Below, piece by piece: positions 7,632 to 18,644 of a DNA stretch of 64,000 bases; the stretch's first letter is position 1, and each line of letters opens with the position of its first letter. The position numbers and the translations under genes were made by a program. The notes below the pieces were generated by a model. That model was not told where the DNA came from. It saw only the letters and a program-made list of their open reading frames with translations, and searched no databases. The DNA is from Candidatus Falkowbacteria bacterium HGW-Falkowbacteria-1 (lineage in GTDB: Bacteria > Patescibacteriota > Patescibacteriia > Patescibacteriales > UBA12465), in NCBI GenBank assembly GCA_002840305.1, contig PHAI01000001.1:229463-293462 (forward strand), written 5' to 3'.

Positions 7632-7637
7632 TATAAT
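7632..7637 (+). promoter_or_regulatory. candidate -10 box (TATAAT) placing a transcription start near the tRNA 5' fragment at 7646
   Basis: Perfect TATAAT 8 nt upstream of 7646. The only TTGCAT -35-like hexamer (7606..7611) is 20 nt away, so the spacing is poor. Confidence 0.3.
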
Positions 7638-7645
7638 AAAATATT

Positions 7646-7671
7646 GGAGAGTTCGCATAGTGGTCTAGTGC
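7646..7671 (+). repeat. 26-nt exact duplicate of the 5' end (acceptor + D arm) of tRNA-Ser(GGA)
   Basis: GGAGAGTTCGCATAGTGGTCTAGTGC is identical to 8008..8033. The sequences diverge immediately afterwards, and no T arm or 3' acceptor follows. Confidence 0.9.
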
Positions 7672-7749
7672 CAGTCTTCGGCTGGTCAGTCACAGGCTGA
7701 CGCTAAATATTTTAAACTAAATGTATGGCTTGAAATATTTTTTATAAAA

Positions 7750-8001
7750 ATCATATTTTACACATATTTATTAAGAAGTAAAATTAAAAAATGGACCTAC
7801 ATTGGGCCTACAAAAAATTTATGTAGAAGGTTTAAAGAGCATAATAGCGGTAAGGTAAAATCAACGAGCCCATATTTGCCATTTGATTTGATTTATTATG
7901 AAGCATATAATAATTATACATTAGCCAGAAAAAGAGAAATTGAATTAAAAAAGAAGGGGCAACAGAAGGAAATTTTAATGGCAAGATTGAATATAGTATA
8001 A
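7750..8001 (+). CDS. small stand-alone GIY-YIG nuclease-domain protein (no canonical start codon)
   Basis: Manual translation of the frame ending at TAA 7999..8001 gives (I)IFYTYLLRSKIKKWTYIGPTKNLCRRFKEHNSGKVKSTSPYLPFDLIYYEAYNNYTLARKREIELKKKGQQKEILMARLNIV. This shows the Y..Y / YIG / R..H / E pattern of COG2827-type GIY-YIG proteins. The frame is open from 7669, but only ATA/ATC codons (7744, 7750, 7753) precede the domain, which is why it is absent from the ORF track. Confidence 0.55.
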   Translation: MIFYTYLLRSKIKKWTYIGPTKNLCRRFKEHNSGKVKSTSPYLPFDLIYYEAYNNYTLARKREIELKKKGQQKEILMARLNIV

Positions 8002-8007
8002 ACATTT

Positions 8008-8095
8008 GGAGAGTTCGCATAGTGGTCTAGTGCGCACGCTTGGAAAGCGTGTATACCGCAAGGTATCAAGGGTTCAAATCCCTTACTCTCCGCCA
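8008..8095 (+). tRNA. tRNA-Ser (anticodon GGA), class II with long variable arm, CCA encoded
   Basis: Manual cloverleaf: acceptor GGAGAGT/ACTCTCC; D arm GCA..TGC with GG; anticodon stem CACGC/GCGTG with loop TTGGAAA; variable stem ATACC/GGTAT; T arm AAGGG-TTCAAAT-CCCTT; G73; CCA. Confidence 0.95.
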
Positions 8096-8098
8096 AAC

Positions 8099-8126
8099 AA
8101 AAAACCCGAACTGCTTCGGGTTTTTT
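8099..8126 (+). terminator. rho-independent terminator after tRNA-Ser(GGA)
   Basis: A-tract, stem CCCGAA / TTCGGG with loop CTGC, then TTTTTT. Confidence 0.8.
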
Positions 8127-8144
8127 GTTTGCTGAAGATAAAAA

Positions 8145-8278
8145 GAGGGATTTGAAAGCCGGAGGCGATGTGTGAGCATAACGAACACCGCCGAGGCCGG
8201 GTCGGGGAGCTTAGCGAGCGACGAGCAAAGCGAGAAAGCGAGGCTTGGCTACCGTGACCAAACCCCTTACTCTCCGCG
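8145..8278 (+). repeat. GC-rich element, copy L, ending in a second copy of the tRNA-Ser 3' end (CCCTTACTCTCCGCG)
   Basis: GAGGGATTTGAAAGCC...GGAGGCGATGTGTGAGCATAACGAACACCGCCGAGGCCGGGTCGGGGAGCTTAGCGAGCGACGAGCAAAGCGAGAAAGCGAGGCTTGGCTACCGTGACCAAACCCCTTACTCTCCGCG. Near-identical to 9087..9259 apart from scattered substitutions and a ~39-nt indel. Confidence 0.85.
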
Positions 8279-8295
8279 AAAACAATTTTAAGAAT

Positions 8296-8334
8296 AAAAA
8301 AAGTCGAATTGCGAGATTCGACTTTGTTTGTTTT
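8296..8334. terminator. bidirectional hairpin terminator (serves the minus-strand gene 8333..8887)
   Basis: AAAAAAA, stem GTCGAAT / ATTCGAC with loop TGCGAG, then TTTGTTTGTTTT. Confidence 0.7.
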
Positions 8335-8887
8335 AGACTGTTTTAAATTCATCAAAATTGCCTGATTTTATATCGGCAACTGTCATGATTATATAAAACA
8401 ATCCACCTGCTAGAGTTGCCCACAATGGTGCGCCCCTTAAATCTCCACTTATTATGTTGATAAAACAGATTAATGCCATTCCTGACAGAATTCCAAAATA
8501 GGGCAAATGGCTAATACCTCCCAGGCTTATTTTTCCTTTTTGAGGGTAGCCCCAGTCTGGTTTGTGGGACGGCCTTAAGTTCATCCATGCAAAAATTGTG
8601 GCGAGTATAATAGAGAAAGCAATAAAGATAACCCACTCTAAGTTAGTAATTTCACCTTTTATTGCAAGGTGAATAAAGCCATTTGTAATCCATACTAGGC
8701 CGAATAAATCTCCATAGGTTTGTGTGTAAAAATCTTCCCAGTATAAAAATTTTTGCTTACTACTTGAGATAATAGATTTACGAGATGGTAGGTTGCCTCT
8801 TTTTTTGTCTAATTGCTCAGCCAAGTATTGAGATAGACAAAATAAAGTATTTAAAAGAGCGACTAAATAAAAAACTGACCAGTTCAT
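8333..8887 (-). CDS. integral membrane protein, unknown function
   Basis: 184 aa with several hydrophobic helices and no recognised motif. Flanked by the ~210-250 bp direct repeats. Confidence 0.6.
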   Translation of the reverse strand: MNWSVFYLVALLNTLFCLSQYLAEQLDKKRGNLPSRKSIISSSKQKFLYWEDFYTQTYGDLFGLVWITNGFIHLAIKGEITNLEWVIFIAFSIILATIFAWMNLRPSHKPDWGYPQKGKISLGGISHLPYFGILSGMALICFINIISGDLRGAPLWATLAGGLFYIIMTVADIKSGNFDEFKTV

Positions 8888-9008
8888 GATTTCCTCCGTT
8901 TTTTAGTTATTTTTTAATGAATTGTGTCTGTATTATATCATATTTTTTGCGATATGTCAATATTTCAGGTTTTGGTATATTTTACTTAATGAATTTTTGA
9001 ATAAAAAA

Positions 9009-9037
9009 GTTCCAACTACGTCCCACTCTCTCCGCCA
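9009..9037 (+). repeat. degenerate copy of a tRNA-Ser 3' end (no 5' half upstream)
   Basis: GTTCCAACTACGTCCCACTCTCTCCGCCA compared with GGTTCAAATCCCTTACTCTCCGCCA of the tRNA at 8071..8095. It is followed by a copy of that tRNA's terminator. Confidence 0.75.
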
Positions 9038-9040
9038 AAT

Positions 9041-9070
9041 AAAAAACCTGACTTGCGTCAGGTTTTTTTT
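9041..9070 (+). terminator. copy of the tRNA-Ser(GGA) terminator with compensatory stem changes
   Basis: Stem CCTGAC / GTCAGG (loop TTGC) plus a T-tract. Relative to 8105..8120, two stem positions changed on both arms so pairing is preserved. Confidence 0.7.
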
Positions 9071-9086
9071 GTTTGGAGATGGCTAG

Positions 9087-9259
9087 GAGGGATTTGAAAG
9101 CCCTCCTTCGCCATATTTCATATGGCTTCGGCGGGTAAACCGGAGGCGATGCGTGAGCATAGCGAACACTGCCGAGGCCGGGTCGGGGAGTTTAGCGAGC
9201 GACGAGCGAAGCGAGAAGGCGAGGCTTAGCTACCGTGGCCGAATCCCTTACTCTCCGCG
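9087..9259 (+). repeat. GC-rich element, copy R, with ~39-nt extra hairpin insert, ending in AATCCCTTACTCTCCGCG
   Basis: Aligns to 8145..8278. The extra segment 9103..9141 contains the perfect hairpin GCCATAT-TTC-ATATGGC. The last 17 nt before the final G match the tRNA-Ser(GGA) T-arm/acceptor exactly. Confidence 0.85.
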
Positions 9260-16434: not shown

Positions 16435-16521
16435 GGAGAGGTGCCAGAGTGGTTGAATGGAACAGTCTTGAAAACTGTCGTGCCTTAACGGGTACCGAGG
16501 GTTCGAATCCCTCCCTCTCCG
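16435..16521 (+). tRNA. tRNA-Ser (anticodon UGA), class II, CCA not encoded
   Basis: Acceptor GGAGAGG/CCTCTCC; anticodon stem ACAGT/ACTGT with loop CTTGAAA; variable stem GTGCC/GGTAC; T arm GAGGG-TTCGAAT-CCCTC; G73. Confidence 0.95.
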
Positions 16522-16531
16522 CGATAATAAA

Positions 16532-16559
16532 ATAGCCTTTAAACAAGGGCTATTTTTTA
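16532..16559 (+). terminator. terminator after tRNA-Ser(UGA)
   Basis: ATAGCC...GGCTAT hairpin followed by TTTTTT. Confidence 0.7.
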
Positions 16560-16601
16560 TAGGGAGTTTATTATTTTGAGACACCATGTTATAATTACAA
16601 T

Positions 16602-17192
16602 ATGAATATAAAAATAATTTTGTCTATAATTGCAACAATTATCGGAGTTGTGGCATTTTTTCCATATCTTAGAGACATTGTTCAATTAAAAACTAAACCG
16701 CATGTTTATACCTGGCTTATTTGGGCGGTTACGCAAACAACGGCAGTGGCAGGAATTTTGCACGGTGGTGGTGGTTGGGGGTCATTAAATCTTATAATTG
16801 GAACATTTTTTGTTGTTTGTATCTTTTTGTTCTCATTAAAATATGGGTCAAAAAATATAACCAAAGGAGATTCTATTGTTTTAGTGATTGCCCTTTGTGC
16901 GGTTTTAGTTTGGTGGCGGTTAGATAGACCCATACTCGCAGTTATAATGGTTTCTATTATAGATGTTCTTGGCTATATTCCAAGTTTTAGAAAGTCTTAT
17001 CAAGAACCATGGAGCGAAACTTTAATCTCCTGGGTGCTTTTTTCTGTATCTAATATTTTCGCTATTTTAGCATTAAACGAATACAATTTATTGACAGTGA
17101 CATATTTAGTGGCGATAACATTAGCAAATTTATTTATATTTTTACTATGTTTTTTAAGAAGATCTTTTATCCCTAGGCCCAGTTCATTTTAG
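16602..17192 (+). CDS. integral membrane protein (about 6 TM), unknown function
   Basis: 196 aa, hydrophobic throughout. First islet gene downstream of tRNA-Ser(UGA). Confidence 0.6.
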   Translation: MNIKIILSIIATIIGVVAFFPYLRDIVQLKTKPHVYTWLIWAVTQTTAVAGILHGGGGWGSLNLIIGTFFVVCIFLFSLKYGSKNITKGDSIVLVIALCAVLVWWRLDRPILAVIMVSIIDVLGYIPSFRKSYQEPWSETLISWVLFSVSNIFAILALNEYNLLTVTYLVAITLANLFIFLLCFLRRSFIPRPSSF

Positions 17193-17276
17193 TTATAAAT
17201 ATTAGACGAAGTCTAATCGGTGTGTTTGTATTATTATTTGCAGAGATATAAAGTGTAATTATTTTCCATAAAAATC

Positions 17277-17304
17277 GTTCCAAAACGCCTCGCTCTCTCC
17301 GCCA
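17277..17304 (+). repeat. degenerate tRNA-Ser 3'-end-like fragment
   Basis: GTTCCAAAACGCCTCGCTCTCTCCGCCA. Very similar to 9009..9037 and 18517..18544. Confidence 0.7.
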
Positions 17305-17425
17305 ACAATATTTTATTAGATTATTGAGACATATTCTCTCATCAAAAGTTTCTGAAAAAAATTAAAAATAATAAAAAACGACCAAGAGGTAAAAACGAGG
17401 CTTTATTTGTTTCAAAGAAAACAAC

Positions 17426-18247
17426 ATGATAACTAATAAAAATAAATATTTAGCATATTTTTTTAACAAATTTGATTATTTAATCAGATTTTTATATTCT
17501 CAGCTTAGTTTAAATAAATTGTTTTTTTGGAAGTTGTATTCTAGTGATTTCGAGAGATTAGATTCTAGTTTTGAAAAGGTGCATTTTTTTTTAAAAAGTC
17601 ATAATTTTTCGTTTCAAGATAAAACATGTTTAGAATTGGGTCCTGGAAATTCTTATGTTAACGCATATAATTTTTTGTTTAATGGAAGCAACAAGGTTGT
17701 TTTGGTCGATAAATATCCTAGACATATAAAAACAAAAAAACAAAAGGCTTTTTTTCAAAAAGAAAAAGAATTCATAAAAACTAAATATAACAATAAGGAA
17801 ATAGATTTTGATAAGATAGTTTTTATTTCTAAGGACTTAAGCGAAGTTGAGTTGAACGAAGAAATAGATTTTGTTTATAGTATTAGTGTTTTTGAGCACA
17901 TAAAAAATGTTGAAGAAAATATAAAAAAATTAAGTTCTATATTAAAAAAAGGTGGATTCTTGTATCATCTAATAGACATGAGAGATCATTACAATTTTGA
18001 TAATCCTTTTTTGTTTTTGAAGTATTCTAAAAAAACATGGGAAAATTATTTAACTAAAAAGGGTGTTAGTTATACGAATAGAATCAGATATAGTGAATTT
18101 AAAGAAATTTTCGAAAAAAATGGCTTTGAAATCATTTCTGAACAGATAACAAGATATCCTATGCCAAATAAAATATACAAGGCATTCAATAAGGATGATA
18201 AAAATATAGACATTGGAATATGGAGGGTTTTAATGATGAAGAAGTAA
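17426..18247 (+). CDS. class I SAM-dependent methyltransferase
   Basis: Motif I CLELGPGNS, followed by VVLVDKY and ISVFEHI. Confidence 0.65.
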   Translation: MITNKNKYLAYFFNKFDYLIRFLYSQLSLNKLFFWKLYSSDFERLDSSFEKVHFFLKSHNFSFQDKTCLELGPGNSYVNAYNFLFNGSNKVVLVDKYPRHIKTKKQKAFFQKEKEFIKTKYNNKEIDFDKIVFISKDLSEVELNEEIDFVYSISVFEHIKNVEENIKKLSSILKKGGFLYHLIDMRDHYNFDNPFLFLKYSKKTWENYLTKKGVSYTNRIRYSEFKEIFEKNGFEIISEQITRYPMPNKIYKAFNKDDKNIDIGIWRVLMMKK

Positions 18248-18516
18248 ACAAAAACATTGTAGCTAATTATATCGCTTGGGTCTAGTATTTTCTAGGTCTT
18301 TTTTGTTATTATCATCCTTTTAATTATATAAATTGAATAATGCTAAAAATTAGCTATAATGTATGCATAATTAATTAGCACTATAAGTATATAGAAGACA
18401 ATTCTTATAATATTAAGGTTGCTGATTTATTGGTTGTTTTACCGAATACTAAAATTTATTATTTAGATAAGATGAAATTAAATTTGATAACGATTCTAGC
18501 TTGGAACTCTAACAAA

Positions 18517-18580
18517 GTTCCAAAACGCCCCACCCTCTCTGTGGTAGCAAAATAGACCTTAAACAAAGGCTATTTTTTGT
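18517..18580 (+). repeat. degenerate copy of the tRNA-Ser(UGA) 3' end plus its terminator
   Basis: GTTCCAAAACGCCCCACCCTCTCTGTGG-TAGCAAAATAGACCTTAAACAAAGGCTATTTTTT compared with GGTTCGAATCCCTCCCTCTCCGCG-ATAATAAAATAGCCTTTAAACAAGGGCTATTTTTT at 16500..16558. Confidence 0.8.
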
Positions 18581-18644
18581 AAGGTGTTTATTGCTTAGGA
18601 ATTATATGGTACAATTTAAACATAAATGTATAAATTATAAGAGT

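Follow-up and report, generated by a model that had tools for sequence, protein, structure and literature searches.

The stretch of DNA analysed here (the window, 64,000 nucleotides, G000:C4:229463-293462) belongs to a 913-kb genome of 33% GC in six contigs, G000, which comes from groundwater. Two resident tRNAs, tRNA-Ser(GGA) and tRNA-Ser(TGA), were identified in it by ARAGORN and Rfam, and the Rfam scan of the window gave no match beyond these two. Behind the genes, and on the same strand, lie three short fragments that look like displaced tRNA 3' ends, one at the GGA locus and two at the TGA locus (Table 1). An initial annotation had reported these fragments, and its positions for them, as well as the 3' ends that it quoted for the two tRNAs, agreed with our reading of the sequence. 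Its central observation, that the fragments resemble each other more than they resemble the tRNAs beside them, was borne out by global alignment: the pseudo-ends of G000 share 71–93% identity with one another and 50–67% with the 3' end of any of the four tRNA-Ser genes present.

Table 1. Features at the two tRNA-Ser loci, in window coordinates
Feature	Position	Strand	Description and basis
tRNA-Ser(GGA)	8008..8095	+	ARAGORN, Rfam, sequence
B-type docking site in tRNA-Ser(GGA)	8086-8093	+	...CTCTCCGC; TTCAAA to CCGC, 21 nt
First inserted unit, GGA locus	8094..8277	+	Terminator hairpin and GC-rich gene-less element; sequence
3' end of the 8094..8277 unit		+	tRNA-like ...CCCCTTACTCTCCGC; B-type (tRNA-like) spacing
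Single-gene cassette	8278..9035	+	184-aa ORF on the minus strand (8333-8887); closes with motif copy 1
Motif copy 1, P-type arm	9003..9035	+	AAAAAAGTTCCAACTACGTCCCACTCTCTCCGC; fits the family consensus; E 1.5e-12; junction after C9035
tRNA-Ser(TGA)	16435..16522	+	ARAGORN, Rfam; docking site ends at CCGC 16519-16522
Cassette	16523..17302	+	Terminator/leader module and 196-aa membrane-protein ORF (16602-17192); closes with motif copy 2
Motif copy 2 (the fragment on which the initial annotation centred)	17271..17302	+	AAAATCGTTCCAAAACGCCTCGCTCTCTCCGC; spacer of 4 nt, not 5; more diverged; E 2.6e-7
Cassette	17303..18542	+	273-aa SAM-methyltransferase ORF (17426-18247); closes with motif copy 3
Motif copy 3	18511..18542	+	AACAAAGTTCCAAAACGCCCCACCCTCTCTGT; 4-nt spacer; end degenerated from CCGC to CTGT; E 6.8e-7
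Flank past motif copy 3	18543..18612	+	Terminator/leader module, ~80% identical to that at 16523-16590

The 184-aa ORF of the first cassette gave no Pfam match, and no PADLOC match was obtained for the cassette ORFs of G000; a unit on contig C1 carries a DUF2726 nuclease-like gene. The GC-rich gene-less element of the first inserted unit recurs as a second copy at 9038-9257. At both loci of the window the inserted block is similar at its left end to the flank on its right, which would fit either a cassette left arm mimicking the native terminator or an exchange by homologous recombination.

Several further features were noted in G000. Upstream of tRNA-Ser(GGA), at 7632-8007 and beside a GIY-YIG ORF, short duplicated tRNA 5' fragments occur together with a hairpin, and the same arrangement is found upstream of tRNA-Ser(GCT) (G000:C4:209972-210010), so that the 5' sides of these genes also carry insertions. 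About 100 nt of non-coding DNA upstream of motif copy 3 (18413-18517) is 78–83% identical in three genomes of the same genus (G016:C6, G009:C33, G006:C8), a distance at which most non-coding DNA gives no alignment. A dispersed repeat, GATCTCTCCGCTCGCCATCCGCAGGATGGCTCAGTCGAGATGACAAAG, is present in more than 12 copies on contigs C1, C3, C4 and C5 (e.g. C4:78539, C4:90679, C1:154269); base changes in its variants compensate for each other (ATCTC/GAGAT versus ACCTC/GAGGT), suggestive of a structured RNA or hairpin element.

Motif copies and cassette arrays across the family

In a genome-wide scan of G000, all four tRNA-Ser genes were found to have a pseudo-3' end within 0.8–2.1 kb downstream. At the CGA, GGA and TGA loci this is the motif of the window fragments, and at the GCT locus it is a different, tRNA-like end. 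Each of the four motif copies of the genome lies on the same strand as a tRNA-Ser gene and 0.8–2.1 kb downstream of it, the fourth being at C1:147992 and 93% identical to the copy at 9009. These latter two follow the consensus, which is roughly 33 nt long (A..A.CGTTCCAA-N5-TCCCACyCTCyCCGC), and the copies at 17277 and 18517 are diverged.

Compared with a tRNA, the motif has lost the 5' strand of the T-stem and has a spacer of 5 nt (4 nt at 17277 and 18517) between GTTCCAA and TCCCAC. The spacer varies in sequence (CTACG, GTGCG, CATCG), and the inner 15 nt are common to motif and tRNA-Ser. Its acceptor-like part, TCCCAC-TCTCTCC-GC, is that of real tRNA-Ser(TGA) 3' ends (T-stem 3' strand plus acceptor strand) in genomes of the same genus; the "extra CT/TC dinucleotide" that the initial annotation had listed as a shared feature is therefore an artefact of alignment, the true difference being the spacer. 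Because the T-stem and acceptor bases differ from those of every resident tRNA, the motif was not derived from a resident tRNA, and with these differences and the 5-nt spacer it is not a true copy of a tRNA 3' part from the crossover on, as an Islander-type element would have. No fold common to the three window copies was found on either strand, and only copy 3 has a hairpin, private to it.

A search of the genome and its relatives, which the initial annotation had suggested, was carried out at several levels. The strict motif pattern gave the four matches in G000 and 21 in 13 of 101 relatives, and a reversed control pattern gave none in any of these genomes. With R1, a sequence-only model built from an alignment (A1) of 27 motif copies, the motif was detected in 96 of the 148 genomes of this Patescibacteria (Falkowbacteria-like) family, representing 14 of its 16 genera, at up to 17–20 copies per genome, the weakest of which may be genuine tRNA ends. 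Among 185k species genomes the exact motif is almost confined to Falkowbacteria/Patescibacteria MAGs, and viral contigs contained no exact copy. Directly past CCGC, conservation drops from 2.0 to 0.3 bits, a figure in which a few columns are fixed by the selection pattern.

Motif copies in relatives form co-oriented arrays, with six copies at spacings of 418–1347 nt in G031 and five to six in both G139 and G132. Consecutive junctions delimit 55 units, whose median length is close to 1 kb; most measure 0.4–2.6 kb and a minority 5–10 kb. Small units of 0.4–2.6 kb with an intact consensus motif are common across many genera, and most contain no truncated large serine recombinase (LSR) gene. The sequence directly behind tRNA-Ser in one genome can be found directly behind the motif in another, so that tRNA end and motif are equivalent boundaries. 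An identical 126-nt cassette end is present in two genera, where the sequences diverge right past CCGC and the neighbours differ. Four public runs contain the window DNA, and their assembled contigs, which are silent on excision, show breaks at the tRNA and at the motif, with joints to the tRNA-Ser of other organisms.

The small cassettes have recurrent left-end modules of their own, unrelated to the right arm (P') of LSR elements, and the terminator/leader module of the 16523..17302 cassette is also found behind many motif copies in relatives. Such a module, placed behind tRNA-Ser or motif (16523-16590, 18543-18612, L071, L081, L083), consists of a terminator hairpin, AATAGCCC...GGGCTATTTTTT, and then TAGGGAGTTTATCACTTTGG, which is conserved across genera. 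Behind tRNA-Ser(CGA) (G000:C1:147128-147240) and tRNA-Ser(GCT) (G000:C4:210121-210235) the same leader of about 110 nt (AAGAATATTTAGTATCGGAAGACCCGAGTGCC...) is followed by unrelated ORFs; the two copies are 91% identical over 168 nt, and the module also stands behind motif copies in G009, G031 and G132. Homologues of the DUF2726 gene in five other genomes had no motif or tRNA-Ser within 1.5 kb. Together with the cassettes' own left-end modules, this location of a cargo gene outside cassettes leaves the independent mobility of small cassettes unproven.

Serine recombinases, junctions and half-site spacing

A recombinase co-occurring with the motif, another suggestion of the initial annotation, was found in relatives. 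For this part of the analysis 24 LSR loci were oriented and mapped. In fourteen cases an LSR gene, always of the same clade, converges on a genuine tRNA-Ser gene (TGA, GGA, GCT, CGA) and overlaps it; in each of the 13 for which enough sequence was available, a first motif was found 4.9–10 kb downstream, often with more motif-bounded small units behind it. This constant position at the distal end of LSR elements identifies the motif as the element-borne arm of an attachment site. The tRNA-Ser-linked LSRs of G139 and G132 contain all three of the Resolvase, Recombinase and Zn_ribbon_recom domains (Pfam). Clade-1 LSRs are 90–97% identical across genera, one from the genus of G000 included, whereas the chromosomal DNA of LSR-bearing genomes aligns only at the tRNA, which points to recent horizontal spread.

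The reading frames of several LSRs (L096 11129-12700, L109, L113, L119) extend antisense into the tRNA-Ser gene, in part or over its full length, and the C-terminal residues of these recombinases would therefore change upon excision. The GC-rich gene-less elements (8148-8277 and 9060-9257 in the window; L097 in G124:C3) also have a tRNA-Ser-like 3' end, in the unspaced geometry of a tRNA. As a clade-1 LSR element in G124:C3 is joined directly to this tRNA-like end, such elements may act as alternative or decoy docking sites.

A three-domain recombinase accompanying these sites was seen in relatives and not at the window cassettes or in G000. There, no LSR of the tRNA-Ser clades was found, nor, by tblastn, any LSR remnant near tRNA-Ser, where only the antisense reading of the tRNAs matched. 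The cassettes of G000 are thus orphans, and the window sites may be inert; the suggestion in the initial annotation that the recombinase is encoded elsewhere agrees with this, in that no matching recombinase lies near the sites. The single LSR of G000 overlaps tRNA-His, and its identity to the tRNA-Ser-linked LSRs is low, at about 23% over the tblastn match. Encoded at C1:198532-200211, it is 559 aa long, has all three domains and converges on tRNA-His(GTG); a spaced pseudo-tRNA-His end was not found within 25 kb.

The junctions of the LSR elements place the crossover. At fourteen attL junctions the order is tRNA-Ser...TCCGC followed by ACTGAATCAAAATCG; the covarying bases of T-stem and acceptor are, as far as TCCGC, those of the individual tRNA, the element begins from there (ACTGAATCAAAATCGC...), and past TCCGC all LSR elements have ACTGAATCAAAATCGCTTTTATTTTCAATTTTAGAG. 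Homology between elements, at 86–91% of the DNA, starts with the first nucleotide past CCGC. Retention of the tRNA bases on one side and homology from nucleotide 1 on the other put the crossover within or just after TCCGC, and the central dinucleotide can be placed only within or just after these bases. With the crossover at this point, the whole motif is element-borne and constitutes the P arm kept in attR. LSR elements thus show hybrid junctions at both ends, with attL in 14 cases, the distal motif in 13 of 13 and the recombinase gene beside one junction. By eye, no convincing mirror image of the left arms could be made out in the right arms (P', ACTGAATCAAAATCG..., and the variable B').

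The predicted junction of P arm and P' (motif followed by ACTGA) was absent from the assembled contigs of 148 family genomes and from viral contigs. Three matches were obtained in metagenomes, of which two are another left-end module that happens to begin with ACTGA and the third is a truncated LSR remnant within a degenerate array. Neither an excised circular form nor an empty site was seen in these assemblies, which counts against a mobility of the small units.

Measurement of the half-sites gave two distinct spacings. The distance between the first T of TTCCAA and the C of CCGC is 26 nt in 56 of 66 motif copies, and the corresponding distance in tRNA-Ser, from TTCRAA to CCGC, is 21 nt in 25 of 27 genes. 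For serine integrases, the motif of the zinc-ribbon domain (ZD) is shifted by 5 bp between attP and attB, with the shorter distance to the crossover in attB, and the recombinase domain binds alike in both sites (Rutherford et al. 2013, PMC3783163). The relation of the motif to the tRNA-Ser end is exactly this published offset between attP and attB half-sites, an outer block 5 bp further out having been found on the left arms, which were the arms tested. Against a reading of the motif as a P arm speak the 4-nt spacer of motif copies 2 and 3 and, if the crossover is at GC, a heptamer that is more distant from it, by 2–4 bp, than in the structure of the Listeria integrase.

The same spacing was observed with another target. 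In G023 the end of tRNA-Asn reads GTTCGAA-TCCGACCCCGGGAGC and the far end of the element GTTCGAA-CTTCG-TCCACGACCCCGAGC. The LSR of this element (L140/L122, G023:C1:351000-381000) belongs to a distant clade (31% identity) and sits at tRNA-Asn, with the spaced pseudo-tRNA-Asn end about 16 kb further on; a second LSR element follows directly behind that end. In a separate comparison, TTTAGTATC behind tRNA-Ser(CGA/GCT) was found to equal the 9-mer of the Listeria ZD motif, which was judged a chance match in an AT-rich genome.

Origin of the fragments and alternative explanations

We consider it likely, with a probability of roughly 0.8, that each pseudo-3'-end fragment is a copy of the left attachment-site arm (P arm) carried by integrative elements that LSRs insert at the ends of tRNA-Ser genes. 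The initial annotation had proposed a shared origin, for example in an element-borne, attP-like or cassette-end sequence, and the family-wide occurrence of the motif, its position at the distal end of LSR elements in four tRNA-Ser isoacceptors and its independence of the resident tRNAs all favour that proposal. According to the model, LSRs of this Patescibacteria family would use the final bases of tRNA-Ser genes (...TCCGC) as the site at which elements are inserted. The proximal junction, attL, would then consist of the intact tRNA and the recombinase end of the element, and the distal junction, attR, of the P arm and whatever stood behind the tRNA. Every newcomer would dock at the genuine tRNA, shifting older units downstream and building a cassette array in which every unit is closed by a P arm.

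Observations in relatives bear on the order of entry. Five LSR ends abut an arm of the 26-nt type instead of a tRNA, and in G148 tRNA-Ser(TGA) is followed by a second-clade LSR element of about 17 kb, by its P arm and then by the recombinase end of a clade-1 element; both argue that new elements enter at the genuine tRNA and displace older ones. The P arm would mimic the tRNA-Ser 3' end, having in common with it TCCC..C.CTC.CCGC, probably the contact of the recombinase domain, and the GTTCNAA T-loop heptamer, probably the contact of the zinc-ribbon domain and 5 bp further from the crossover in the P arm. Such an offset would explain why fragments at different loci are alike and unlike their resident tRNAs. 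We infer the pairing of sequence blocks with protein domains and the exact crossover dinucleotide from these comparisons. How the recombinase-less cassettes of G000 arrived is likewise a matter of inference, the candidates being an LSR acting in trans from a visiting or since-lost element and the decay of once autonomous elements.

An alternative that we put somewhat below even odds is that the small cassettes are relics only, that is, decayed right ends of autonomous LSR elements or older insertions, now immobile, in which the motif survives as the copies are young or of common ancestry. The absence of a cognate LSR or LSR remnant from G000 is what would be seen in that case, and the divergence and 4-nt spacers of the copies at 17277 and 18517, one of them without CCGC, as well as the DUF2726 homologues that lie outside cassettes elsewhere, point the same way. 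Less easily accommodated are the frequency, in many genera, of 0.4–2.6 kb units with intact consensus motifs, the left-end modules of these units, which recur and are unrelated to the P' of LSR elements, the cassette end that is identical in two genera with different neighbours, and the lack of a truncated LSR in most small units.

A tyrosine-recombinase system like that of integrons, with the motif as an attC-like site recombined with the tRNA end, would account for single-gene, mostly co-oriented cassettes that have one closing repeat each, no internal recombinase and a fixed docking site alongside. We nevertheless regard it as very improbable, since the two tyrosine recombinase genes of G000 are both far from the motif sites and none was found at the arrays of five array-rich relatives (the one exception to this distance lies beside tRNA-Arg/Asp). 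LSR genes do sit at the arrays of such relatives, and in 14 cases an LSR gene adjoins the docking site. Nor does the motif have a shared hairpin or inverted repeat on either strand. A tyrosine-integrase crossover in the T-loop was considered and rejected, motif and tRNA having no common 7-nt overlap there. Marginally harder still to credit is that independently decayed, displaced tRNA 3' ends converged by chance, or that the fragments are a selected tRNA-like RNA signal at transcript 3' ends. They do stand at gene 3' ends, usually with terminator hairpins behind them, but a 33-nt sequence occurring in 96 genomes against no control matches, differing from the resident tRNAs and ending at the junctions of mobile elements is hardly the outcome of decay, and neither an acceptor-stem partner strand, nor a covarying structure, nor an Rfam family was found for an RNA signal.

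Within the preferred reading, in which the fragments are LSR-borne P arms, a bolder extension may be drawn, which we advance tentatively and hold to be rather doubtful: tRNA-Ser genes may act like the attI site of a serine-recombinase integron, with LSR-less, mostly single-gene cassettes, under selection for a P-type arm, being captured, excised and exchanged between species in trans by the LSR of a visiting or neighbouring element. If this were true, trans-mobilised cassettes would constitute a shared, modular pool of accessory genes for ultra-small genomes.

By the rule that emerges for these bacteria, the element side of a serine-recombinase junction can be recognised by a tRNA-like fragment containing a 5-bp spacer, and cassette boundaries and the order of insertion become readable from sequence. 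The sites lend natural support, from uncultivated bacteria, to the spacing model that separates attP from attB of serine integrases, and they provide dozens of natural site variants together with near-identical recombinases that accept four tRNA-Ser targets. They also show at which sites, and probably by what means, accessory genes are gained and lost in Patescibacteria whose genomes are smaller than 1 Mb.

Comparison with known systems

In SCC and SCCmec elements, large serine recombinases use the 3' end of a single conserved gene, rlmH, as the insertion site, and in composite islands tandem units lie between direct repeats of the site, many of them (pseudo-SCC) having no ccr recombinase. LSR insertion at a conserved gene 3' end, tandem stacking and the many recombinase-less units are features common to both systems. 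The target here, by contrast, is tRNA-Ser in four isoacceptors, the units are mostly of 0.4–2.6 kb with one gene, the hosts are ultra-small Patescibacteria, and the repeat is a spaced mimic of the target and not a copy of it. Integrons comprise IntI, the attI docking site and cassettes with attC, an imperfect hairpin. Like integrons, the present arrays have a fixed docking site, insertion on the promoter-proximal side and single-gene cassettes that lack a recombinase and are closed by one site. The docking site here, however, is a tRNA end, no IntI-type tyrosine recombinase was found beside the arrays of G000 or of five array-rich relatives, and the cassette-end site shows no folded attC structure.

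The closest parallel in site architecture is with the integrases of the Listeria A118 family, whose sites have a common inner block and an outer block that lies 5 bp further out in the element-borne site (PMC3783163) and whose three-domain recombinase layout is the same; the outer block of the present sites is 7 nt long and shows this 5-bp shift (26 versus 21 nt). Here the host site is a tRNA 3' end with the T-loop as outer block, the relation is read from sequence and for the left arms only, and the distance to the crossover may be 2–4 bp larger. Prochlorococcus tycheposons likewise stack at tRNA genes, tRNA-Ser(TGA) included, with partial tRNA copies between them, newer arrivals pushing older ones inward and degenerate remnants present; of 937 such elements, 910 carry a tyrosine recombinase, and their partial tRNAs repeat the tRNA end faithfully (Hackl et al., bioRxiv 10.1101/2020.12.28.424599). 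Streamlined genomes, tRNA-anchored stacking and partial tRNAs between units are thus common ground, whereas the enzymes of the present system are LSRs and its partial tRNA has a 5-bp spacer.

Our literature search found no paper describing a tRNA-Ser/LSR cassette system in these bacteria. By analogy, the mechanism would be that of known LSR integrative elements, the stacking resembles that of SCC and tycheposon islands, and the layout resembles that of integrons; new are the use of tRNA-Ser, in four isoacceptors, as a target in Patescibacteria, a P arm that is a spaced mimic of the tRNA and the abundance of recombinase-less single-gene units.
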